This document shows positions 49,533 to 64,000 of a DNA stretch of 64,000 bases, in pieces (position 1 is the stretch's first letter; each line of letters starts with the position of its first letter). The stretch comes from Blastocatellia bacterium. Lineage in GTDB: Bacteria > Acidobacteriota > Blastocatellia > UBA7656. Below the pieces are notes generated by a model. The model saw only the letters and a program-made list of their open reading frames with translations. It had not been told where the DNA came from and did not search any database. A program made the position numbers and the translations under genes. Where the stretch lies: positions 800,001 through 864,000 of the forward strand of contig CAVXWP010000001.1 of NCBI GenBank assembly GCA_963765495.1, read 5' to 3'.

Positions 49533-50098
49533 AATATGCTACTCGTGGTTTGAGAACTATAAAATTGCCGACATCGTTTAACGCCGTCGCAGATTGTAAT
49601 CGCAAAGGCCCTCGGCGGCAACGTACTGCCAACCAATAGGGGTTCTGGACAGATGAATGGATGGGAATTGAGGTTCAGTGGTTATCCAGCCATGCCCAAA
49701 TTAAGCTATGGCAAGCCCTTCCAGTAATTCTTACGTGCGTCGCTTCTAAGACAATGTTTGACAAAGCTCTTTTCTTGTGGTTCAATCGGCCTACCCAAAG
49801 AAGTTCTAATAGCCCCCTGGCAGTACGCAGGAATTATCCGGGCCTCCTTCATTCGGATGTTTACCGAAGTTGGAGGGTTTGTGTTGTCCCGGAGTGGCAG
49901 GCCCCCTCACGAATAAGTACAAGTGTAGTTGAGGGCAAGCAGTGACTGTTTGAGTCGAGAGGCGATACCGGCAATTTCCTCAGGTTTCAAGTATTTTGCC
50001 GCCGGTTCGTGGGAACGCGTCAAGTGCTCTACAGAGTCCAGGCTTGTAAAGCAAAAATAGATCCGGGGCTAGCCGGGTTCCTCATACAGGAGGCAAGT

Positions 50099-53038
50099 AT
50101 GGAACGCGTTCTGAGGTGTTCAATAATAAAAGCCGTAACAATTCTCATCTGTCTGCTGGGCCTGGCCCGGACGGGATTTTCTACTTCGGTCATCATACCT
50201 TCCGACGACGATCTGGTCATAAGCGCCCGCGCCATCGTCACGGGCACAGTGCTTTCGATGGGCACTGGCTTTGACGATGAACAGGAACGCGTATACACCT
50301 ACGTTACTTTGCAGGTCGAGGACGTGCTAAAAGGCGCGATTACCCAGCAAGAGATTATTTTGAAACAGGAGGGCGGTCAGTTCGGAGACCGCGGCGAAAT
50401 TTTATACGGCACTCCCGATTTCAGCGTAGGCGAGCGAGTGCTTGTATATCTGGACACGTGGGCCGACGGAAGCCTTCGGGTTCATCAGATGTTTCTGGGC
50501 AAGTTCTCCATCGTGAAGGACCCGGCGACCGGGCAGGAGATGGCGGTTCGAGCCAGTCTCAGAGACGACGTGGTCACAGTGCCTACGGTCAGCAATAAAG
50601 CAAAAGCGACCAACCGCATGGAGTTGAACGCGTACAAAGAGATGCTGCGCGAGAGGCTCGCGGCAAACCTTGCGCGCTCGACAGAGTTCCAGAATGCCTA
50701 TTATGGAAATGTGCCGATGTATGCTCGCCCGCTCAATTACGATGCGGAGAAGGCGCGGGGAGGCATACTGCCGAGCTTTGTCACGATAAGCCCGCTCAAC
50801 CCGCGATGGTTCGAGCCCGATTCGGGGCTGCCCGTCTCTTTCAAGGTCAACCCTGACAATGCGCCTTACGCGACAGTCAACGATGACATCACGGCGGCGA
50901 TGAACGCGTGGACCCACGTCAACGGGATTCCTCTTGAAGTGATAATAGGCGGCACGACGAGTTCCTGTTCGCCGTCTCTTTCAGAGAACACGATAATCTT
51001 CAACGGATGCGACGGGCGATGGTCGCCAAGCTCAGGTTGTCAGGGCGTACTTGCGCTCGGCGGGTTGAGCTGGACCGGTGCTTCGATAACGATAGAAGGC
51101 ACGACCTTTCGCAAGGCCGCAGCCGGGTTTATATCGTTTAATCCATACACCTGCTACTTCTCGAATCACTGCAACGTTCAGGAAGTCACTACGCACGAGC
51201 TTGGACACGCTCTGGGGCTCGGCCATTCGCAGTTCAGCGTCGCCACGATGTGGGGCGTAGCGCACTTCGACGGGCGTTGTGCTTCAATCAAGCAGGACGA
51301 TATTGACGGGATTTCTTTCCTGTATCCTCCGGCGGGTGGCGGCGGCGGTGGCGGGGGTGGAAGCCCTCTCGCTATCACGACATCTTCTCTGCCTTCGGGC
51401 ACAGTCGGCTCGACCTATTCGCAGAGCCTTGCCGCATCAGGCGGGACGCAACCATACAGTTGGAGTCTTGCAACGGGGTCGGGACCGCTCCCTTCGGGTT
51501 TGAACCTGAGTTCAAGCGGCGTGATAAGCGGAGTGCCCGCGTCAAGCGGCACATCGAGCTTCTCGATAAAGGTTATGGATTCCGCGGGCGCATCTTCGCA
51601 AAAAGCCTTCGCCATCACGGTCAACGGAACATCCTCACAAAACTATGATTCGATATTTTTATCCCAGACCGTGCCGCAGACGCTGCAACCCGGGCAACAG
51701 TTCACCGTCAACCTCAAATGGCAAAACACGGGAACGGCCACGTGGAACGGATACTCCGGGTTCAGGGTGGGGTCACAAAACCCCGCAAACAACGGGACAT
51801 GGGGAGGCAATACCGTGTTGCTGCCCGGATTCGTAATCCCCGCCGGTCAGACGCTCGACCTTTCATTTAACGCTTTTGCGCCAGTCGAGCCCGGCCTCTA
51901 CGATTTTCAGTGGCAACTGGTGCAGGACAACGTGTTTTTTGGCCAGATGTCGTCCAACGCTCAGATAGCGGTAGGAGTGATTACAGATGAGTCTCCGCCT
52001 GCTATGAGCGGTTCTACTTCGCTGACGGCGGTCAAGGCCGTTGCCTTCAGTTATCAGTGGGCCGCAAGCGGCGGCACGCCCCCGTATACGTGGTCAATAG
52101 CGAGCGGCACCGTGCCTGCCGGGCTTGGGCTGAACGCGGCTACGGGCACGTTGTCGGGGACTCCGACCGATACGGGGAATTTCACGGTCGCTGTAAAGGT
52201 GACGGATTCCGCATTCTTAAGCGATCAAAAGACGGTGGCGATCACAGTAGAGCCTCCGCCCGCTGCGCAGATAGAAGTCACCACTTCATCGATCCCGGAT
52301 GCAGGAATTGGAGCGACCTTCATCTTCTCGTTAGAGGCCACAGGCGGCACACCGCCCTACACGTGGTCGATAGCCGGGGGTACGTTCCCTGCCGGATTGA
52401 GCCTGAACTCCACCACGGGCGTAATCTCAGGCGTGGCCGCATCGGCCGGGAATTTCTTATTTACGGTTCAGGTGACTGATTCCGCCTCGCACAAGGCTCA
52501 AAAGGATTTCTCGATCAAGATCAAGCCGGCCCCGCTTTCGATTGACGCGGTGCCGCAGATGGAAGTGATGATGGGAGCGCCCTTATTTTACCAGCCGAAA
52601 GCGAATGGGGGGACGCTGCCTTACACCTGGTCAATGACAGGCGGCGCGCTGCCTGCGGGGGTGGGGCTCAATACGAGCACGGGAACCATAAGCGGGACTC
52701 CGACCGTAAGCGGAACCTTTGATTTCAGCATCAGCGTCAAGGATGGAAATCAGACAAGCGCATCGACAGCGGTGCAGATCAAGGTGATCGACCCGGCAAG
52801 TATACCGCAGATAACCAATGCCAAATACAAACCGGCAGGCAGAAAGCTGATCGTAAAAGGTGAGCGGTTCGACCCGACGGCGAGGGTCAGGGTTGACGGG
52901 GGCGAGATAAATGTCAGCCCGAAGAACAGCCATAAATTTGTGATCAAGCGATTCCCTCTGGATAAGGGACCGCACACCGTTGTCGTAGTCAATTCCAGCG
53001 GAGGCATTTCGCAAAGCGTTACCTTCACTGTCAAATGA
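50099..53038 (+). CDS. Secreted metzincin (matrixin-like) protease with Ig-like repeats
   Basis: HELGHALGLGH with ATMW Met-turn; Gly linker; four GGT.PY.WS...G..P.GL repeats; an NBR1-Ig-like insert; C-terminal IPT-like domain. Confidence 0.85.
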   Translation: MERVLRCSIIKAVTILICLLGLARTGFSTSVIIPSDDDLVISARAIVTGTVLSMGTGFDDEQERVYTYVTLQVEDVLKGAITQQEIILKQEGGQFGDRGEILYGTPDFSVGERVLVYLDTWADGSLRVHQMFLGKFSIVKDPATGQEMAVRASLRDDVVTVPTVSNKAKATNRMELNAYKEMLRERLAANLARSTEFQNAYYGNVPMYARPLNYDAEKARGGILPSFVTISPLNPRWFEPDSGLPVSFKVNPDNAPYATVNDDITAAMNAWTHVNGIPLEVIIGGTTSSCSPSLSENTIIFNGCDGRWSPSSGCQGVLALGGLSWTGASITIEGTTFRKAAAGFISFNPYTCYFSNHCNVQEVTTHELGHALGLGHSQFSVATMWGVAHFDGRCASIKQDDIDGISFLYPPAGGGGGGGGGSPLAITTSSLPSGTVGSTYSQSLAASGGTQPYSWSLATGSGPLPSGLNLSSSGVISGVPASSGTSSFSIKVMDSAGASSQKAFAITVNGTSSQNYDSIFLSQTVPQTLQPGQQFTVNLKWQNTGTATWNGYSGFRVGSQNPANNGTWGGNTVLLPGFVIPAGQTLDLSFNAFAPVEPGLYDFQWQLVQDNVFFGQMSSNAQIAVGVITDESPPAMSGSTSLTAVKAVAFSYQWAASGGTPPYTWSIASGTVPAGLGLNAATGTLSGTPTDTGNFTVAVKVTDSAFLSDQKTVAITVEPPPAAQIEVTTSSIPDAGIGATFIFSLEATGGTPPYTWSIAGGTFPAGLSLNSTTGVISGVAASAGNFLFTVQVTDSASHKAQKDFSIKIKPAPLSIDAVPQMEVMMGAPLFYQPKANGGTLPYTWSMTGGALPAGVGLNTSTGTISGTPTVSGTFDFSISVKDGNQTSASTAVQIKVIDPASIPQITNAKYKPAGRKLIVKGERFDPTARVRVDGGEINVSPKNSHKFVIKRFPLDKGPHTVVVVNSSGGISQSVTFTVK

Positions 53039-54135: not shown

Positions 54136-54478
54136 TTGTCAATCTCCCGTTTTTTGGCGGGCTTACGGACCCGCTGTGGATGCCGGATTCAGCAATAATT
54201 CTTAATGAAGCGCCACGTGACTGCCGGTTCAAGAGCAGCATGAATGAACATAGACCCTGACTAATATAGCACTAACGGGTAGCGGTTCTTCAAGTAATGC
54301 GCGGATCAGACAGGGCTGGATAAGGGCTGGATAAGGACTTGATACCGGCTGGCGCTGGCACTGGCTTTCTCGGAATTGTTATACTTCTGGCTCACGATAA
54401 GCAGATAATTCATCATAAATCCCTGTTGCGAGGCGCAGCATTCGAATGCTGCCGGGTTAATCTGGAGGAATGTTCAAT

Positions 54479-55000
54479 ATGGCGAAGCAGTCATCGCAGA
54501 CCCGCGAAAGCAAGAAGGCTCAATTTGCCGAGCCAGTTCAACCCAAAAACAAGCTCACGCCTGTTTTGATAGTGATAGCGGCAGCCATGATTGGCGTGGT
54601 CGCTTATCTTATCGTGAGCAGTTCAGGCACTACCGAGGCTCCCGTCGCTTCGAATGCAACTGAGATAAGGATTCCGCTCGCGGATCTGGAGGGGGGCAAG
54701 GCGAAGTTTTTTGATCATACGTTGTCCGACAATAAGCCTGTCCGGTTCTTTGCGATCAAGAGTTCGGACGGCGTTTACCGCGCGGCGCTCGACGCCTGCG
54801 ACGTATGCTTTCACGCCAAGAAAGGTTATCGCCAGGAAGGCGATGACATGGTGTGTAATAATTGCGGATTGAAATTCCATTCCGCCTTGATCAATGAAGT
54901 CCACGGCGGCTGTAATCCGGTCGGGCTGCCTCGCACAATCGAAGGCGATTTTCTGGTTATCAAAACCAGTGAATTGGAGAGCCGGGGCGGCTACTTCTGA
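54479..55000 (+). CDS. DUF2318-type membrane-anchored Fe-S protein
   Basis: One TM; DACDVC, GY, VCNNCG and GGCNP. Confidence 0.85.
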   Translation: MAKQSSQTRESKKAQFAEPVQPKNKLTPVLIVIAAAMIGVVAYLIVSSSGTTEAPVASNATEIRIPLADLEGGKAKFFDHTLSDNKPVRFFAIKSSDGVYRAALDACDVCFHAKKGYRQEGDDMVCNNCGLKFHSALINEVHGGCNPVGLPRTIEGDFLVIKTSELESRGGYF

Positions 55001-55021
55001 AGGATTTGAGATTTGACGGGT

Positions 55022-56254
55022 ATGAGAATCAGCACTATAGCTTTCGCAAATCTGAAACGGCGCAAAGGCAAGGCCGCCTTTCTCGTCATAGGCATAGCCA
55101 TCGGCATAGGTACGGCGGTTGCCCTGTTGAGCCTGAGCGCATCAATAAAAGAAGAGATAGGTTCGCAGCTTGACCGCTTCGGAGCCAACATAGTCGTAGT
55201 GCCGCAATCAAACAGCCTCGCGCTCGATTACGGCGGCATATCGGTCTCAAGCGTCTCATTCGATGTTCATCAATTGAAAAACGAAGACGCCCGAAGCGTG
55301 CTCGATATACCTTATCGCAATCGCCTGAGCATAGTCGCGCCCAAGATTTTAGGCGCGGTCGCAGTCGAGGGGCGCGAGATTCTGGTTGCCGGTGTTGATT
55401 TCGAAAACGAACTGAAGCTCAAACGCTGGTGGCATATCACGGGTGAAACGCCCTCGGCAGAGCAGGACGTGATCGCGGGCTATGAAGTGGCGCGGGCGCT
55501 TTCGATAATCGAGCCGACCGCAGACTCGCATCTTGAAACCGTTTCGCACTCGGATCACGCGGATGTTCAAATTCCCTTCAAACTCGTTCGGGATCAGATT
55601 CAACTTGCCGGTTTCGCTCATCACGTTTCAGGCGTTATCGCACAGACCGGAGGGCCGGAAGACCGCATGATTTTCGGGTCGCTCGCGCACATTCAATCGC
55701 TTTTGGGAAAGCCCGATCAGTTGAGCCTGATCGAGGTGAGCGCGCTGTGCAAAGATTGCCCCGTCACGGATATAGTCGCGCAGATCAGCAACAAACTGCC
55801 GCACGCGAAGGTCTCGGCCATACAGCAATCCGTCCGCGCCCGTACGGAAACCGTCGAGCGGCTGACTCGATTCTCTGCCGTAGTCGCCGCCGTAGTGCTG
55901 GCAATCGGCGCGCTTATGATCTTCACAACCATGACGGGATCAATCGTCGAGCGCACAAAAGAGATAGGCGTCTTGCGCGCCATCGGCTTTCGCAAGACTC
56001 ATATCATCAAGGGGCTGATGATCGAAGTTGCGACCATAAGCATAGCAGGCGGTCTGCTTGGCTGGGTCGCCGGTATTTTTGCGAGCCGCCTGGCACTGCC
56101 TTATTTTGCCGAGACCGATATAGGTTTTCACCTCCAGCCCTCGCTTGCCCTTGCAGCCGTAGGCGCGGGTCTTGTGATAGGCGTACTCAGCAGTTTTTAT
56201 CCGATCATACGCGCCTCGCGGCTCGACCCCTCCGAATCGGTCCGCTACGTTTGA
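55022..56254 (+). CDS. ABC transporter permease (MacB/FtsX type)
   Basis: N-terminal TM, GANIVV, ERTKEIGVLRAIG and YP..RASRLDP. Confidence 0.9.
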   Translation: MRISTIAFANLKRRKGKAAFLVIGIAIGIGTAVALLSLSASIKEEIGSQLDRFGANIVVVPQSNSLALDYGGISVSSVSFDVHQLKNEDARSVLDIPYRNRLSIVAPKILGAVAVEGREILVAGVDFENELKLKRWWHITGETPSAEQDVIAGYEVARALSIIEPTADSHLETVSHSDHADVQIPFKLVRDQIQLAGFAHHVSGVIAQTGGPEDRMIFGSLAHIQSLLGKPDQLSLIEVSALCKDCPVTDIVAQISNKLPHAKVSAIQQSVRARTETVERLTRFSAVVAAVVLAIGALMIFTTMTGSIVERTKEIGVLRAIGFRKTHIIKGLMIEVATISIAGGLLGWVAGIFASRLALPYFAETDIGFHLQPSLALAAVGAGLVIGVLSSFYPIIRASRLDPSESVRYV

Positions 56255-56268
56255 GGAAGTCCAACAGC

Positions 56269-56955
56269 GTGTCTTTTCTGCTAATTGAAAATGTCGGCAA
56301 GACTTACAGCGAAGACGGGCAGTCTTCGAGCGTGCGAGTGCTTTCAAACGTCACGGCCGAGATCGAAGAGGGCGAATTCGTCTGTCTGATGGGGCCTTCG
56401 GGTTCGGGCAAAAGCACGCTGCTTACGGTCGTAGGCGCGATGAACCACCCGACCGAGGGACGCGTCGTCGTAGACGACATCGATGTGTATGCATTGCCTG
56501 ATGAGCGCCGGGCAGATTTTCGCCGCGAGTATCTCGGTTTCGTATTTCAGCAGCATCACCTGATGCCTTATCTGAACACGATTGAAAACGCCATGCTCCC
56601 GCTTGCCACAGTGAATCTCGGCGCAAAACAGAAGCGAGAGCAGGCCGCAGAGGTGCTTGAGCGGGTCGGCCTCGCCGATAAAGCGCGGCGGCTGCCCAAT
56701 CAGCTCTCAGGCGGAGAGCAGGGACGGCTGGCCATCGCCCGCGCCATTATCAATAACCCTCCTTTGATACTTGCAGACGAGCCTACGGGCGCGCTCGATA
56801 CGCAAACGGGGCGCGAAGTGATGGAAGTATTTTTGAAACTCAACAAACAGGGACAGACTATCTTTATGGTCACGCACAACCCCGAAAACGCTATGCTTGC
56901 GCATCGAACAATAAACATCAAAGACGGGCGGATAGTCTCAGATGAGCGCATCTGA
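56269..56955 (+). CDS. ABC transporter ATP-binding protein (LolD-like)
   Basis: GTG start; GPSGSGKST, LSGGEQ, LADEPTG and VTH. Confidence 0.92.
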   Translation: MSFLLIENVGKTYSEDGQSSSVRVLSNVTAEIEEGEFVCLMGPSGSGKSTLLTVVGAMNHPTEGRVVVDDIDVYALPDERRADFRREYLGFVFQQHHLMPYLNTIENAMLPLATVNLGAKQKREQAAEVLERVGLADKARRLPNQLSGGEQGRLAIARAIINNPPLILADEPTGALDTQTGREVMEVFLKLNKQGQTIFMVTHNPENAMLAHRTINIKDGRIVSDERI

Positions 56956-58312: not shown

Positions 58313-59062
58313 TCACCGAAACAAATCCAGTTCCGGTCGCCGGATCAATTCGGCGGCGCTCGCCTCTCTCGCCTCGTAATCGAATCCGCGCACTATCGCG
58401 ACGGGCACGCCGAGACTTTTTCCCGTCACGAGTTCTGCGGCCGAAGCCAGTTCATCGGCCACCGCCAGAACCGTGACCCTCAGCAATTGCCCGTGCGAAT
58501 CCAACTGCCCTCGATAATCGGTCAAAGGCGCTATCCCTGAGACTCCGAGCGCGACATTGACAAGCCCTTCGCGCCACGGACGTCCGAAGGTATCAGAGAC
58601 GATGACCGCCAGACGAACGCCGAAAACCGCTTCGAGTCTTGCGCGTATCAGTTGCGCTGATTCATCCGGGTTTTCCGGGAGCAGCACGACCGTTCCTTCT
58701 GCTGTATTCGATGTGTCTACACCGGCATTTGCGCAAACAAAGCCGTGATGAGTCTCTGAAATAATCAGGCCGCGCTCCATTCTCACTATTCGCCGGGTCT
58801 GATTGAGGACCACCTCTACGACGCGCGCGTCCTTGCCGTACTCATCGGCCCACCTGCGAGCGAGTGGCGACGGGTTCACCGAATCGAGCCGAAGGATGCG
58901 GCCCTCGGCCTTCGAGACTATTTTTTGCGCGATCACAAAGACATCGCGATCCTTGATTACGGCGGACGACCTCCGCGCGGCATCCGCGATCAGTGAAGGC
59001 AGGTCGTCGCCCTCAGATATTTCGGGCAGACCCGCGAGCCCCGTAATCGTGATTTCAGCCAT
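58313..59062 (-). CDS. cofE: Coenzyme F420-0:L-glutamate ligase
   Basis: QKIVSKAEGR, CANAGVD.SN, DTFGRPWR.G and ADELASAA.L. Confidence 0.92.
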   Translation of the reverse strand: MAEITITGLAGLPEISEGDDLPSLIADAARRSSAVIKDRDVFVIAQKIVSKAEGRILRLDSVNPSPLARRWADEYGKDARVVEVVLNQTRRIVRMERGLIISETHHGFVCANAGVDTSNTAEGTVVLLPENPDESAQLIRARLEAVFGVRLAVIVSDTFGRPWREGLVNVALGVSGIAPLTDYRGQLDSHGQLLRVTVLAVADELASAAELVTGKSLGVPVAIVRGFDYEAREASAAELIRRPELDLFR

Positions 59063-59114
59063 GACGCTTTTTGACAGGATCAACAAGATTAACAGGAATC
59101 CCGTCAAATCCCTT

Positions 59115-59771
59115 CTAAATCCTGTCAACACGGTCAAAGATTCCCATCCTGACAAGCGTATTGAAAGTTTCTGTGCCCCGCCCTGCCTCTAAAAATAATT
59201 TCAGATCGGCCGGATCATCAATATCGAGCGCGATTCTTGGATTGGTTACGACCACGCACCGACTGCCCGCGCGAGCGGCTTCTTCCTTGTGCAATGCGAG
59301 CGAATTCGGGCCGAAGCGCGAAGGGAATAAATCGGCCGGGGCGCGAACGATGGCGTTTGTTCCCGTTCCGTCACGCGAAGGCACAAGCAGGGTGGCGGGC
59401 GCTCTGAGTTCTGTTGCCAGCAATTCGTCCACGTCTTCGGCCCTCACGAGCGGTATGTCTGCGGGCAGCCTCATCACGGCGTCAAATCCCTGTCGACGGA
59501 GTCTTCGCGAGGCCCAGTCTATCGAGGCGCTTTCCGAATCCTGAGTCTCTTCCCTCAGCACTTCCCACCCAAGGTTGCGGGCGCGCTCGATTGCTGCATC
59601 AAAGCTTGTGACGATAAAGATTCGGTCGGCTTCTTTCGCCCCGGTAACAGCGCGACTGACATCTTCAAACATAGCCCATGCCAGATGCCGCCTTTCATCT
59701 GCCGATAGCAACCGGTCAAGGCGCGTCTTTGCCCGCACAGGCTCTTTAATTGGAATCAGTAATGCTTTCAT
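59115..59771 (-). CDS. cofC: 2-phospho-L-lactate/PEP guanylyltransferase
   Basis: IPIK....AKTRL, PADIP, GTGTNA, FGPNS...H and DIDDPADL. Confidence 0.88.
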   Translation of the reverse strand: MKALLIPIKEPVRAKTRLDRLLSADERRHLAWAMFEDVSRAVTGAKEADRIFIVTSFDAAIERARNLGWEVLREETQDSESASIDWASRRLRRQGFDAVMRLPADIPLVRAEDVDELLATELRAPATLLVPSRDGTGTNAIVRAPADLFPSRFGPNSLALHKEEAARAGSRCVVVTNPRIALDIDDPADLKLFLEAGRGTETFNTLVRMGIFDRVDRI

Positions 59772-59778
59772 CCATCAA

Positions 59779-59862
59779 GTTTGAGTTTTGAATTATGAGT
59801 TTTGAGTTTTGAATTTTCACGACGACGCGCTAATTCAAAACTCAAAACTCATAATTCAAAAC
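59779..59862. repeat. Inverted heptamer arrays (TTTTGAG/TTTTGAA type)
   Basis: Read directly; overlaps the cofD stop. Confidence 0.85.
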
Positions 59863-60768
59863 TGTTTTGGCCAGCCTCTGTTTGTCTTCCGCCGTATTCA
59901 TAATGGTATCGGTCACAACTACTCGCATACCGAGGTCTTCTATATCCGGGCAAGTCCGGGCGTCTGTTTCGTCAAGCACGAACAGAGAGGCAAAATCGCG
60001 GTAGAGTCGAGCTACGCCCGTCGCTGAAACCTCGTGCCCCAGATCGCGGAGCATATCAGCCGCCGGTCCCTTGAGCGCCCGCCCGCTAATGATCGGTGTG
60101 ATGGCTGTGACAGAATCACGCTTTTGCCCGAGGGCCTCGCGCACGCCCGGTACGGCCAGTATCGGCCCTATGCTGATAAAGGGATTGCTCGGACAGATGA
60201 TTACCCGGTCGGCTTCGGCAATCGAGCGCAGGAGGCCGGGCGCAGGCAGGGCCGATTCCATGTGCTCAAATCGAATCTCCCTGACGCGGGGCTCACACCT
60301 GCGACGCACGAAATATTCTTGAAAGTGCATCTGGCCTTCATCGGTCACAACCCGCGTCGGAGTGTAGTCATCCGTCATCGGGAGTATCGAAGAGCGAACG
60401 CCGAGGGCGAGACGTATCTGATCTGTCGCCTCCGAAAGCGTCTGACCGCGTCTCAGCAAATCTGTGCGATGGATATGTGTGGCAAGATCGCGGTCACCGA
60501 GATTAAACCACGAAGGCGCGCCGTAGCGCGCCATCCATTTCAACGATTCAAACGTGTCACCCGCGATTCCCCAACCCGTGGCTTCGTTTATCACCCCGGC
60601 CAGCGTGTAGGTCAGCGTGTCTATATCGGGCGATATGCGAAGGCCGAACATCTCTATATCATCGCCCGTGTTGGCAAGGATAGTGATCTCCTCCGGCCGC
60701 ATCACTCGCGCAAGCCCCAGTAAGAATTTCGCTGCCCCGATGCCGCCTGCAAGTGCTGTGATCTTCAT
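59842..60768 (-). CDS. cofD: 2-phospho-L-lactate transferase
   Basis: LAGGIGAAKFL, NTGDD, SPDID, WFNLGDRDLATH, HFQEY and PSNPFISI. Confidence 0.93.
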   Translation of the reverse strand: MKITALAGGIGAAKFLLGLARVMRPEEITILANTGDDIEMFGLRISPDIDTLTYTLAGVINEATGWGIAGDTFESLKWMARYGAPSWFNLGDRDLATHIHRTDLLRRGQTLSEATDQIRLALGVRSSILPMTDDYTPTRVVTDEGQMHFQEYFVRRRCEPRVREIRFEHMESALPAPGLLRSIAEADRVIICPSNPFISIGPILAVPGVREALGQKRDSVTAITPIISGRALKGPAADMLRDLGHEVSATGVARLYRDFASLFVLDETDARTCPDIEDLGMRVVVTDTIMNTAEDKQRLAKTVLNYEF

Positions 60769-60876
60769 AATAGAGTGATGAGTGATGAGTGATGAGTGAT
60801 TCGTGACTTTCAGGCCGTCCGGTTATTAAAGCAGGTTTGCAAGACGGGTAAATCACGGATCACGCATCACTCATCT

Positions 60877-61557
60877 CTACCCCGGCAATCCTACGATTCG
60901 ATAACAGGCCGTCTTTATCTTATAGCGGCGATTGATGCCTATGGCCAGCACTGTCATCCGCTCGATGGTTCTCGCGCTGTAGAGAAGGCCAGCATCTACG
61001 GGCCGAAGCCCTTCGATAGACTCGATTGCTTCAATCACACGCGCTCGCGCTTCTTTGGAGTCGCTTGCTACAAGCACATCTGAGTCAAGCTTCTCAGTTG
61101 GGTCAACCAGCAGATGGGCAGGCTCGGTCTTGAAGGCTGCCACAAGAGGAATTGATTCGGGCAGCCTTGCGCGCAGATGCTCGCTTGCCGAGCCTTCGGG
61201 CAACTCCGTGTAGCGCACTCGCCCGCCTTCAAACGACACGGGCACGGTTATGTCTATCAGCACAGCGTCTTTCTGAAAATCGTTTTGAAGCTCTTCAAGC
61301 GTCGCCGCCGCGTGCGAAAAAGGCACGGTGAGCAGGACAAACTCCGCGCCTGAGACGGTCGCGGAGTTTTCCGCATATGCTATCGAATTGCCTTCGAGTA
61401 GCTGGTTCAATTCGTCAGCCGCAGCCTTCGCCCGCTCAATTGAGCGCGACCCTATAATCACCTGCGCGCCCGCCATTGCCCATCTGAGCGCAAGCCCTCG
61501 CCCCTCTTCTCCAGTGCCTCCGATCAGACCTACTTTCAAATCACTGATGCTGGTCAT
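60877..61557 (-). CDS. npdG: NADPH-dependent F420 reductase
   Basis: IGGTGEEG.GLA.RWA, IGSRS, GSASE and DAG.L..AR.IE..T.L.I.IN..YK; lies in the cof operon. Confidence 0.88.
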   Translation of the reverse strand: MTSISDLKVGLIGGTGEEGRGLALRWAMAGAQVIIGSRSIERAKAAADELNQLLEGNSIAYAENSATVSGAEFVLLTVPFSHAAATLEELQNDFQKDAVLIDITVPVSFEGGRVRYTELPEGSASEHLRARLPESIPLVAAFKTEPAHLLVDPTEKLDSDVLVASDSKEARARVIEAIESIEGLRPVDAGLLYSARTIERMTVLAIGINRRYKIKTACYRIVGLPG

Positions 61558-61809: not shown

Positions 61810-64000
61810 ATGCCCTCGAAGAGCAAATTCCTCATAAACAGGCTGGATAAGGAACTCGATGTCGTCTGCCTCGAACAAGAAAGCATAACCATAGGCCGGC
61901 TTATCAGCAACGATCTTGTTTTGAACCACCGCGCCGTCTCGCGCACTCACGCCGGGATAAAAGAGATCGGCGGCGTCTTCTGGCTTTTTAATCTGTCGCT
62001 TTCAAACGGAACTTTGCTTGACGGCGAACTGGTGCATAAATCGCCGATTTCCGACGGGGATGTAGTGCAGATAGGCCCGTATCTGCTGCTGATGAATTGC
62101 CCCGATAATGCGATCTCCATAACCGTCGAGATGGAACTCGATGTCCACCCGCTCGACACTCAACCCAGGGCGCTCCAGGACCAGACCGTCCTGATAGCCA
62201 TCCCCTCTTCGCCCGATAAGCCGGCCAGGTTCGGCGCTAAGAAACTCATAACCGGCGGAACCCGACTGAGCAAAGTCATGCCCGCGATAGCGGCACAGGC
62301 GCTCGACCTCTACTGGGCCTTGCGACAGAGGGAGGCGGGGAAAATGTATGCCCGGACCCCGCTCCATCCGAGAGGCAACGAGAAGGTAGGCAAGATTCAA
62401 TTCAACTGGCGTCCGACGCTCGACCTGAGCCGGTTCAGCCGCGCGTCGCTCTTTGTCTGGGGCGCTCTGGTTGTCGCGCTGCTTTCTGTAGCAGCCTTCT
62501 TTGCTCATGCGAATGCGTATTCGCCGGGCGAATTGTCGGTCACTCACAGTTCCGCTTTCGTCTCTGAACGCAATATCGCTGTTCGCTCAAACAAGGGGGA
62601 CTGCGCGGGTTGTCACGGCGTAAAGCAGGGGATGCTGGATAAATGCATCAATTGTCATACGACGCCGGCCTTTCAATCGGCTCCGGGTTTTCAGCCCGCC
62701 ATATTCGATGCTCACAAACGCGCGCGGGTCGGCTGCACAGATTGCCACACGGAGCACGCGGGCGTGAAGCCGGAAGAAGGATTGATGAGCGCGGGGCTTT
62801 GTTCGAGCTGTCACAACGACGCTTATAAAATCAAGGCGGGCGAAAGGGCGGGCCAGATACTGGGCGAGCCGCACGGCGGCGGCATCGGTTACCCTGTCGT
62901 TGACGGCGTGTGGAAATGGAAGGGGTTATCGGCCGATTTGTGGGCCGCAAAGAACCTCTCGCCTTCGCTTGCCCAGGAGAGACCCGCAGACCAGTTTCAT
63001 CTGCTCCATATGAGGGGCAGGATGCAGGGTCTTGTGGGATGCACGGACTGTCATAAGGGAGATGTGAGCGCGAGCGAGGAGTTTCGAAAATCTCCCCGGG
63101 GCGAATGCGCCAAATGCCACGGGCTCGCGACGACCGAAGGCGGGCTCACGGTTGGAAAGCGAAATTGCTATACCTGCCACGTACAGCATCACAGGAATGA
63201 AACCTTCGACGCGCTGCTTGCCGCCGGAGCGAGCGAGACGTCTATCCGCGATTATCTCGCCAGATTGAATGCCGGGGAGAATCAAGCCGCTCGCTCAACG
63301 GCGAAGCCTGATAGACCTCTTGCGGGCAGCGGGGGAGCCGCCGCGATGCGCCAGAACCGGGAGGCTACGGGCTGGAGCGCGACTTCGAGTCTGGGCGCGT
63401 TGCCGTGGTATGGGTGGCTCGGACTGATTGCAGTCCTGCCCGTTGTGGGGCTTGTGCTGGCCTTTGCCGACACGGCCCGAAAAAAACGCATGCTGATAGA
63501 GGCGAGCCGCGAAGTGATCGAAACCGAGAAGGGCCATACTACGGGCTCGCTCGATCTGGAAAAACTGAAGGCCGAAGGCCCTACATACCCGCATCCGGTG
63601 ATTGATCCGGCCCTCTGCATAGGCTGCCATGCATGCGTAGAAGTATGCCCGCACGACGTGCTTACAATCGTCAACGGGATAGCCTCGCCCATCCACCCCG
63701 ATCAATGCATGGAAGACACCAGTTGCCAGGTCGAATGCCCTACAAATCCAAAGGCCTGCATAGTCCTCAATACGACAAAGAAGATTCCGCACCGCCTGAT
63801 CCCGGATCGCGACCGCGAATATATGACAAACATATTTGGGGTCTACCTGATTGGAGACGTATCGGGTGTGCCGTTGATCAAAAACGCGGCCAACGAAGGC
63901 GCGAAGGTCATAACCCATCTGGTCGAAGAGATGAGAAGAGAAAGGCCCGACCCGGCAGCCGAATACGATGTGGCGATCATAGGCATGGGGCCCGCCGGTC
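61810..64000 (+). CDS. FHA - TM - 7xCxxCH multiheme - TM - 2x[4Fe-4S] - TrxR-like flavoprotein fusion (runs off the window)
   Basis: Not in the ORF track. Manual translation is open for 730 codons: IGR..SRTHA..SNGT; CAGCH, CINCH, CTDCH, CSSCH, CTDCH, CAKCH, CYTCH; CIGCHACVEVCP and CMEDTSCQVECP; GVYLIGD; DVAIIGMGPAG. Confidence 0.88.
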   Translation, partial: MPSKSKFLINRLDKELDVVCLEQESITIGRLISNDLVLNHRAVSRTHAGIKEIGGVFWLFNLSLSNGTLLDGELVHKSPISDGDVVQIGPYLLLMNCPDNAISITVEMELDVHPLDTQPRALQDQTVLIAIPSSPDKPARFGAKKLITGGTRLSKVMPAIAAQALDLYWALRQREAGKMYARTPLHPRGNEKVGKIQFNWRPTLDLSRFSRASLFVWGALVVALLSVAAFFAHANAYSPGELSVTHSSAFVSERNIAVRSNKGDCAGCHGVKQGMLDKCINCHTTPAFQSAPGFQPAIFDAHKRARVGCTDCHTEHAGVKPEEGLMSAGLCSSCHNDAYKIKAGERAGQILGEPHGGGIGYPVVDGVWKWKGLSADLWAAKNLSPSLAQERPADQFHLLHMRGRMQGLVGCTDCHKGDVSASEEFRKSPRGECAKCHGLATTEGGLTVGKRNCYTCHVQHHRNETFDALLAAGASETSIRDYLARLNAGENQAARSTAKPDRPLAGSGGAAAMRQNREATGWSATSSLGALPWYGWLGLIAVLPVVGLVLAFADTARKKRMLIEASREVIETEKGHTTGSLDLEKLKAEGPTYPHPVIDPALCIGCHACVEVCPHDVLTIVNGIASPIHPDQCMEDTSCQVECPTNPKACIVLNTTKKIPHRLIPDRDREYMTNIFGVYLIGDVSGVPLIKNAANEGAKVITHLVEEMRRERPDPAAEYDVAIIGMGPAG

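Follow-up and report, generated by a model that had tools for sequence, protein, structure and literature searches.

What does a protein do that carries an FHA domain, seven c-type heme motifs, a ferredoxin and a flavin reductase in one chain? The question is raised by a gene at the end of a 64,000-nucleotide stretch of DNA from a Blastocatellia bacterium (GenBank assembly GCA_963765495.1, contig CAVXWP010000001.1, positions 800,001 to 864,000; hereafter the window). The gene is real, conserved and uncharacterised. Judged by sequence, conservation, gene order and gene fusions, its product stands a somewhat better than even chance of being a subunit of a gated outlet that passes electrons of NADPH, the reduced form of nicotinamide adenine dinucleotide phosphate, to the periplasm together with a separate di-heme b partner. 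The features discussed are collected in Table 1.

Within the window the reading frame is listed as 3'-open only, which agrees with the first-pass annotation, where a hidden fusion of more than 730 amino acids (aa) without a stop had been reported. Extension along the contig (C1, 861810-864956) gives a protein of 1048 aa, P0001, with all four modules in one open frame and no internal stop. Pfam recognises the FHA domain at aa 26-89 (E 1.8e-12; PF00498, 47.9 bits against a cut-off of 20.7), a ferredoxin at aa 596-646 (Fer4 match at 596-619), Pyr_redox_3/2 at aa 719-1047 and a zinc ribbon at aa 880-899, besides cytochrome c3/c7-type matches at aa 262-336 and 408-457 that both lie under the curated cut-offs. 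Of the 8000 candidates scored in a protein search, 261 count as homologs at E<=1e-20, and the named sources are Blastocatellia or Acidobacteriota. Conservation was read from the 117 listed homologs longer than 1000 aa, three shorter ones being dropped. Seven hemes and an Asp at the second iron-sulfur (Fe-S) site are kept in every one of them, and the zinc ribbon in 113. In a class-wide sample, whose tallies include the unpublished genome G130, matches occur in 175 of 251 genomes and in 51 of the 52 from the same family, there mostly as one open frame. A phylum sample of 301 genomes yielded the segment from heme domain to ferredoxin in 16, and 15 of these belong to the same class. A chimeric assembly is ruled out by the full-length homologs of identical architecture and by the same-family matches. 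Contigs of run X1, possibly the source sample, cover the gene at >=99% without a joint; none spans it entirely and they were not counted.

The fusion is not the only form of the system. Several other families mostly carry two genes, equivalent to aa 1-470 and 525-1047, and some of these families have the fusion as well. These split forms support the view that the chain represents two joined subunits, and TM2, the second of the two predicted transmembrane helices, corresponds to the second helix of the stand-alone reductase subunit. The tree of the ferredoxin-reductase part comes from a quick search with its deep forks open and gives no count of fusion origins. Some split forms have an unrelated gene between the halves, by motifs read by eye a ClpX-like ATPase, a rhomboid-like membrane protein or a deacetylase-like protein (L036-L040, L042, L043, L051). 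In genome G011 (L061) a split-form set is followed directly by a full cluster with the fused form, two versions in tandem.

Table 1. Features of the fusion gene and of the adjacent operon, in window coordinates
Feature	Position	Strand	Basis
Fusion gene (P0001), 1048 aa	61810..64000, continuing 956 bases beyond the window to window-equivalent 64956	+	genome extension
FHA domain (aa 26-89) with R30, S44, H47, N66	61885..62076	+	Pfam, conservation
Thr126 with hydrophobic +1 to +3 residues, candidate phosphosite	62185..62196	+	conservation
Conserved, predicted cytoplasmic segment before TM1 (aa 164-206)	62299..62427	+	conservation, complex model
TM1 (about aa 212-232), without conserved His	62443..62505	+	Kyte-Doolittle, conservation
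Predicted periplasmic heptaheme domain, seven CxxCH and seven invariant extra His	62545..63189	+	motif, conservation
TM2 (about aa 533-555), without conserved His	63406..63474	+	Kyte-Doolittle, conservation
2x[4Fe-4S]-type ferredoxin	63592..63759	+	Pfam, conservation
Permuted segment (about aa 665-710), GD motif and helix	63802..63939	+	profile alignment
Start of YpdA/Bdr-like FAD and NADPH domains (aa 719-1048)	63964..64000	+	Pfam, alignment
npdG-cofD-cofC-cofE operon, divergent, not part of the system	58313..61557	-	Pfam, NCBIfam

The modules named in the first-pass annotation, from the two helices and seven CxxCH motifs to the Asp-variant ferredoxin, were each recovered at the predicted place. 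The phosphothreonine-binding residues of the FHA domain are intact as had been proposed, with GR in 116, SxxH in 114 and NG[T/S/V] in 115 of the 117 homologs. Behind this domain, Thr126 and a hydrophobic +3 residue are aligned in 117/117; searched without alignment, the motif is present in 105/117 as against 5.6 after shuffling. The threonine sits in a variable linker of low model confidence (pLDDT <50 at aa 111-151) and is a candidate phosphosite for the protein's own FHA domain or that of a neighbour. In Rv1747, phosphorylated linker threonines near FHA domains are regulatory, as far as the available text describes them (PMC8339232), and a phospho-switch of this kind may by analogy operate in the fusion protein.

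Hydrophobicity on the Kyte-Doolittle scale peaks near aa 214-232 and 535-553. Four Lys or Arg residues precede TM1 and five follow TM2, with 0 and 1 on the opposite sides. With the positive charges next to the helices on the sides of the FHA domain and the ferredoxin, the hemes likely lie outside and the FHA domain, ferredoxin and reductase inside, the topology that had been put forward earlier. The CxxCH motifs of the heme domain start at aa 265, 279, 309, 331, 411, 433 and 453 (nucleotides 62602-63180); an eighth motif of this type, CIGCH at aa 603, belongs to the ferredoxin. Because seven further His are invariant, one per heme (246, 302, 316, 355, 397, 400 and 460), all seven hemes are probably bis-His ligated and the domain would be a wire rather than an enzyme. 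Three relatives (P0122, P0124 and P0131) possess the FHA domain, both helices, ferredoxin and reductase and lack the heme domain. The second ferredoxin site, CMEDTSCQVECP at aa 633-644, includes Asp636, and an extra Cys650 is invariant. Among the 107 sequences scored for this site from 149 representatives of the wider family, its second ligand is His in 38, Asp in 31, Cys in 17, Leu in 14 and another residue in 7.

Only the first 12 codons of the flavin domain proper fall inside the window. By profile alignment the reductase is circularly permuted: a segment that forms the C-terminal part of YpdA and thioredoxin reductase (TrxR) is placed here ahead of the Rossmann fold for flavin adenine dinucleotide (FAD). 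A profile of 18 distant members aligns over positions 171-432 with residues 3-267 of Bdr, and over 121-164 with the C-terminal residues 271-318 of TrxB-3, the latter stretch being weak alone. The genome's own YpdA-like protein shows the same swap of order relative to the flavin domain. A Sphingobium relative is unpermuted, profile positions 184-432 being matched first and 112-161 after (E 2.8e-11). The motif GAGNSA with a following Arg is a signature of NADPH binding; because it is kept (aa 933-938 and Arg968), the sequence points to NADPH as the substrate of the domain.

Which family the domain belongs to needs a finer answer than the "TrxR-like" label it first received. A flavoenzyme of the TrxR fold it is, but it is closest to YpdA/Bdr, is permuted and is devoid of the TrxR CxxC, with KYKLADPEYY at aa 915-924 where TrxB-3 has its CxxC stretch. 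The thioredoxin reductase model TIGR01292 scores 54.5 bits against a cut-off of 343.45, and the YpdA/Bdr model TIGR04018 scores 126.2 against 339.9. The gating Tyr128 of Bdr is replaced (GNRG for GYYG), Ala729 stands at the position of Cys14, a residue of Firmicutes only, and the EAHP motif is absent as well. On these alignments the domain is a member of neither the TrxR nor the Bdr family. Bdr/YpdA (PDB 7a7b, 7a76) is the best match in sequence and fold and shares FAD, NADPH and the lack of CxxC, whereas the fusion differs in its permutation, the ferredoxin ahead, a membrane-bound state and a CxxC-x10-CxxC insert of zinc-ribbon or rubredoxin type at aa 880-897. With the AlphaFold2 model of the whole chain, Foldseek gave only YpdA/TrxR/FNR/AhpF-type matches among the rows shown. 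This model has a pLDDT of 62 and a pTM of 0.38, with much of its heme and ferredoxin parts at <50, and no cofactor distances could be taken from it. An ESM Atlas search gave no match at >=0.9. A Pseudoalteromonas protein (L158, 12932-15286) joins an N-terminal permuted reductase to a membrane domain of several helices, with Fe-S motifs at the C-terminus; lying in a glycosyltransferase/DUF2064 cluster, it combines the same flavin module with a different membrane partner.

How electrons could pass the bilayer is suggested by a paralog, P0113, which is 46% identical to the window's protein and lies in a gene cluster on contig C16 (164146-185521). The cluster begins with a tetraheme protein with a probable barrel, a 9-heme LVIVD protein and cytochromes of 4, 8 and 9 hemes. 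It continues with an 830-aa protein that combines two cyclic-nucleotide-binding (cNMP) domains, an Fe-S domain and a membrane domain, followed by the fusion paralog and a class II phosphodiesterase of cyclic adenosine monophosphate (cAMP). An FHA-GAF-adenylate cyclase and, on the other strand, two cNMP-MscS genes form its end. Heme counts per protein are thus 4, 9, 4, 8, 9 and 7. In the first protein, of 799 aa, the N-terminal tetraheme domain precedes a long region without a Pfam or NCBIfam match; it is 37% identical to a Sphingobium hypothetical protein, and the beta-barrel is a surmise. HbpS-like, globin and DUF4331 genes are found upstream of the cluster. A homologous cluster in Sphingobium herbicidovorans (L157, 11846-27293) shares the barrel-like protein (37%), the LVIVD cytochrome (44%) and the HbpS-like protein (42%); it has an unpermuted reductase fused to cNMP-FeS and an FHA-like decaheme protein.

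The 830-aa protein is the candidate partner. Two stretches match PF00027 (cNMP), and the Fe-S domain is of the DmsB/NrfC type (PF13247, 31.2 bits over a cut-off of 26.2), both in one chain with a membrane domain of five hydrophobic helices that bears WX3HX13H motifs at 630 and 802. His634, His648, His806 and His820 are invariant in 40/40 sequences, and the same four His occur in 81, 82, 79 and 66 of 83 distant sequences, the remainder being nearly all gaps. His634 and His806 would face inwards, and His648 and His820 outwards. A possible counterpart of the SGXXG motif on helix 4 of PCC4/ptd membrane proteins is TGLFG at 671, with Thr for Ser and both Gly invariant in 16/16. Modelled alone, the partner reaches a pLDDT of 56.6 overall. 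It gave no Foldseek match at E<=0.001 in the fold databases searched, and its best VIA Z, 8.3, was on generic helical bundles; the comparison with STEAP4 (6hcy; Z 7.6, rmsd 5.0, 157 aligned) lies within this helical-bundle background. The top ESM Atlas clusters are named ferric-reductase-like at 0.89, which serves as a lead only, and Pfam found no ferric-reductase match in the first 723 residues.

Gene order ties this partner to the fusion. In 26 of the 29 closest relatives its gene is the one directly upstream; of the three exceptions, one is the nearest relative of all, an orphan too, one falls at a contig end and one is unexplained. The same holds for 20/20, 17/19 and 8/8 loci of further class and phylum sets, which were hand-picked and partly overlap. 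Among 80 distant loci chosen by the reductase alone, where several negatives are short contigs, 69 have a membrane domain with the His helices, 67 a multiheme protein and 63 both; their hosts are Proteobacteria, Bacteroidota, Ignavibacteria, Gemmatimonadota, Terriglobia, Myxococcota, Calditrichaeota and others. The ferredoxin-reductase is even fused directly to the membrane domain in 12 of 149 representatives, one of which (P0204) adds cNMP, and in other representatives the reductase shares a chain with several FHA domains and 4 to 9 hemes. Since the distant loci keep it nearly always without cNMP or FHA parts, the conserved core, as read from gene content, is reductase, di-heme membrane protein and multiheme cytochrome, and the cAMP and FHA parts are lineage add-ons. 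Plasmid searches found 1, 12 and 2 records, and Emticicia and Sphingobium plasmids carry named examples of the system. Cytochromes with 58 to 67 CxxCH motifs adjoin reductase and membrane protein in L091, L096, L099 and L106.

Could the window's protein use this partner? The genome has only one matching membrane domain, that on C16, and cytochrome c maturation genes are present. A complex of P0001 aa 195-660 with partner aa 341-830, modelled from our own alignments, scored 0.61, as compared with 0.00 for the best of three controls. The mark in use is reached by 116/157 solved complexes and 2/215 mismatched pairs, counts that are rough for our own alignments. The runs share >=78% of contacts, with a partner pLDDT of >=73. 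In the model TM1 packs on the partner's last heme-bearing helix, aa 198-206 contact its Fe-S domain, and the interface includes the heme-1 region (aa 269-276) and the partner stretch around His648. The model supports binding of the window's protein to the C16 partner; PDB searches turned up no similar complex.

These observations bear on the picture drawn in the first-pass annotation, in which one chain crosses the membrane by itself as an electron conduit linked to F420. It has all modules in one chain on its side, as well as the F420 operon divergent to the gene and cofG elsewhere on C1 (490244), which together speak for F420 synthesis in this acidobacterium. Its call of a part in transmembrane redox was right. 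However, no metal ligand is conserved in the helices, where any His occurs in 14/117 (TM1) and 4/117 (TM2) homologs, so no redox cofactor of the fusion chain should sit in the bilayer, and the di-heme b partner is nearly always adjacent. Neither cof nor npdG was found beside relatives of the gene (0/29 closest loci, 0/20, 0/19 and 0/8 further, partly overlapping ones, 0/80 distant ones). The link to F420 was rejected, the cof genes flanking this copy only and the NADPH motifs being intact. A self-sufficient, F420-linked conduit is hence very improbable.

In the preferred reading, that of an NADPH outlet, the fusion would unite two subunits of a complex in the inner membrane: a periplasmic heptaheme cytochrome anchored by FHA, and a ferredoxin-flavoreductase anchored in the membrane. 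The partner would add two cNMP domains, an Fe-S domain of the DmsB/NrfC type and the five helices that bind two b hemes. Electrons would likely pass from NADPH to FAD and on to the clusters of the ferredoxin, perhaps by way of those in the partner's Fe-S domain, then to an inner heme b (His634/His806), an outer heme b (His648/His820) and the seven c hemes; further periplasmic and outer-membrane multiheme proteins would accept them. NOX-type reductases combine an NAD(P)H flavin domain on the inner side with HX13H helices that carry two b hemes and with an acceptor on the outer side, and together with ferric reductases they work without quinone. The outlet would be built like NOX, ferric reductases, STEAP and MsrQ-Fre, with an NAD(P)H flavin inside, two b hemes and the acceptor outside. 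It differs in a TrxR-fold rather than an FNR-fold flavin domain and in the added Fe-S relay and c-heme wire. As in NOX and ferric reductases, outward flow would be downhill in redox potential and run with the membrane potential. Because such flow would drain both, it would be gated, with a cyclic nucleotide acting on the partner and phosphothreonine (FHA, Thr126) acting on the fusion chain.

The same complex might instead pass electrons to and from the quinone pool at its di-heme b, where the cytochrome and NADPH branches would meet and electrons may enter from an extracellular donor. In He et al. the membrane protein is compared with quinone-active cytochrome b (PMC5566968), and related clusters are present and expressed in Fe(II) oxidisers according to the available texts (10.64898/2026.01.22.701106, 10.1101/2025.02.27.639646). 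Gene order and binding evidence fit this arrangement equally well. On the other hand, gene order across phyla and direct fusions link the membrane subunit to an NADPH flavoenzyme that includes a ferredoxin, quinone is dispensable in NOX and ferric reductases, and inward flow to NADP+ would be uphill in both redox and membrane potential. A quinone-linked complex is thus considered unlikely.

The cAMP genes raise another reading, a redox sensor in which the state of the periplasmic hemes would be passed on as cAMP and Ser/Thr signals with little net flux. The class II phosphodiesterase is directly downstream in 25 of the 29 closest relatives, usually followed by the FHA-GAF-adenylate cyclase, and cNMP-gated MscS genes come next in several loci. 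In addition, the FHA residues and Thr126 are conserved, and the genome holds 35 kinase-motif and 18 FHA open reading frames. However, neither subunit has an output domain. The split-form loci are without the phosphodiesterase, and in the 80 distant loci the core stands without the cAMP parts (cNMP 0, phosphodiesterase 0, cyclase 1, FHA 1), which look like inputs added to an enzyme. A mainly sensory role appears distinctly unlikely.

The window's copy has a peculiarity of its own: it stands alone, away from the cluster that holds its only candidate partner. A terminator-like hairpin lies ~70 bases past the stop, so the gene is probably transcribed alone; a promoter scan found 2 sites where 2.2 were expected, none of them upstream of the gene. 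In a quick tree the copy pairs with one from genome G138 (SH-aLRT 99) on a branch of 0.62 as against a median of 0.19, and that copy has no partner gene within 6.4 kb upstream; the C16 copy groups with G138's second copy. By these placements the window's gene is a second, faster-evolving orphan paralog. Its substitutions cluster at aa 739-782 near the FAD. A partner-free, membrane-tethered NADPH reductase acting on disulfide, ferredoxin or metal, with the heme domain as a passenger, would suit the stand-alone gene with its own terminator, the long branch paired with another orphan, the changes concentrated beside the FAD and the existence of heme-less relatives. Against this, all 7 CxxCH, all 7 distal His and the Fe-S ligands are kept, and the orphan copy itself passes the complex test. 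Moreover, the Bdr residues Cys14 and Tyr128 and the EAHP motif are absent, and bacillithiol is covered by a separate YpdA-like gene and bshC. Such a reductase is quite improbable, and the copy is most likely an alternative subunit for the genome's one partner on C16.

Several points weigh against the NADPH outlet, both for this copy and in general. Of 355 conserved columns, 34 are altered in the copy, as against a family median of 6, and none of the 34 is a cofactor ligand. At one of them, His766 replaces the family's Phe and aligns with Bdr Phe51, which stacks on the FAD re-face (bioRxiv 10.1101/2020.12.02.408641, as available); the chemistry of this copy may differ from that of the family. 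Relatives exist without the heme domain. The ferredoxin (aa 596-650) lies outside the confident interface, which leaves the cytoplasmic hand-over outside the model, and cousins of true partners also pass the complex test, the orphan copy not being separable from the C16 copy. The distant loci were selected by the reductase, so the association is measured one way only, and related genomes are non-independent samples. Lastly, He et al. propose a quinone-active membrane subunit with inward flow (PMC5566968).

Do known systems resemble this one? The available text of He et al. describes PCC3 and PCC4 clusters with a WX3HX13H membrane motif that its authors read as di-heme b, and notes the likeness of this motif to ferric reductases (PMC5566968). 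Its Table S6 gives clusters of 7- to 18-heme cytochromes with a membrane protein, and 10 of the 15 clusters hold an additional redox protein. The ptd operon, as covered by the available text, encodes an FAD/NAD(P) oxidoreductase, a cNMP-FeS protein and a ferric-reductase-like protein, to which that text assigns no function (bioRxiv 10.1101/2023.11.21.568154). As described in these sources, PCC4/ptdABCDEFG has a porin, several multiheme cytochromes, the oxidoreductase PtdC, PtdE with cNMP and Fe-S, and the five-helix inner-membrane protein (IMP) PtdF with two WX3HX13H motifs, on helices 3 and 5; the Fe-S gene is upstream of the IMP and sometimes fused to it. By domain class, the C16 cluster has in common the five-helix di-heme protein, PF13247 with cNMP, and a Pyr_redox_3 oxidoreductase (P0113; the window's P0001 has this domain too), and its 799-aa tetraheme protein is a candidate for the porin. 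It differs in heme counts (4, 9, 4, 8, 9, 7 versus 4, 5, 10), in having cNMP-FeS-IMP as one chain and FHA-heptaheme-ferredoxin-reductase as another, and in the adjacent cAMP enzymes. Hosts described for PCC4/ptd are, in the available texts, mostly marine Proteobacteria, Nitrospirales and Planctomycetes. The fusion system is of the PCC4/ptd kind, as judged by the parts described for those clusters.

Many of the 80 distant loci resemble PCC3 as described, with a ~300-aa IMP beside cytochromes of ~20-24 and 30-60 hemes, and the same permuted ferredoxin-reductase sits beside these PCC3-like sets. PCC3 is described as four genes, and the main text of He et al. contains neither 'ferredoxin' nor 'thioredoxin' (PMC5566968). 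Unlike PCC3, the examined loci of the window's family have no 20-heme proteins. A cluster of Ferrigenium straubiae, in the available part of the preprint, encodes a cytoplasmic FHA domain, one helix and a periplasmic nonaheme, adjoined by five-helix and 4Fe-4S proteins, and is expressed in all conditions tested (bioRxiv 10.64898/2026.01.22.701106). Its cytochrome differs in having nine hemes and, as described there, no fused reductase; the authors found the membrane protein free of redox motifs and suggest that electrons run inwards to quinone (10.64898/2026.01.22.701106). A 10-heme 'Forkhead-associated protein' is tabulated in the accessible part of PMC9900912.

The earlier statement that no characterised protein has this architecture stands in so far as PDB searches gave no full-length match and no NCBIfam model exceeded its cut-off. 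It needs amending in that FHA with multiheme is already in print for Gallionellaceae, without a fused reductase. The literature search, with subscription journals and bioRxiv supplements outside its scope, found no description of the FHA-heptaheme-ferredoxin-reductase chain, the permutation or NADPH as the cytoplasmic end; the ptd supplement and Supplementary Figure 4 of He et al., both outside that search, could bear on the novelty of the chain.

In the window, a probably secreted 1009-aa matrixin-like metalloprotease with several Ig-like repeats is encoded at 50009-53038, and an FtrD-like Fe-S membrane protein, then an FtsX/MacB permease and an ABC ATPase, at 54470-56955. Just past the window (L001, 9118-16916) follow, as read by eye, a winged-helix/TPR regulator, a TPR-CHAT-like protein, an ECF-like sigma factor and an anti-sigma-like gene.

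PCC3, PCC4 and ptd clusters serve as markers of extracellular electron transfer and iron oxidation, and the fusion names a cytoplasmic end for such clusters, an NADPH flavoenzyme with ferredoxin. The tie of this reductase to the di-heme subunit follows from gene order in many phyla, direct fusions and the passing complex model. A wider proposal can be made tentatively, and is more doubtful than the role of the fusion itself: permuted ferredoxin-flavoreductase, di-heme b and multiheme cytochrome may form a widespread, unrecognised outlet that bypasses quinone and takes electrons of cytoplasmic NADPH to the periplasm and the cell surface; in this Acidobacteriota lineage it would have swappable fused subunits, such as the window's copy, and be gated by cAMP and by FHA/Thr126. 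If this is true, PCC3 and PCC4, now candidate inlets for Fe(II) oxidation, would at least partly be NADPH-driven export devices. The two-gene system of fusion and partner makes direction and quinone dependence directly testable, and flavoenzyme research gains a new object in a permuted YpdA-like fold whose Fe-S ligand varies (Asp, His, Cys or Leu). If the outlet reading is right, common soil Acidobacteriota would hold a signal-gated route by which NADPH electrons are exported out of the cell.

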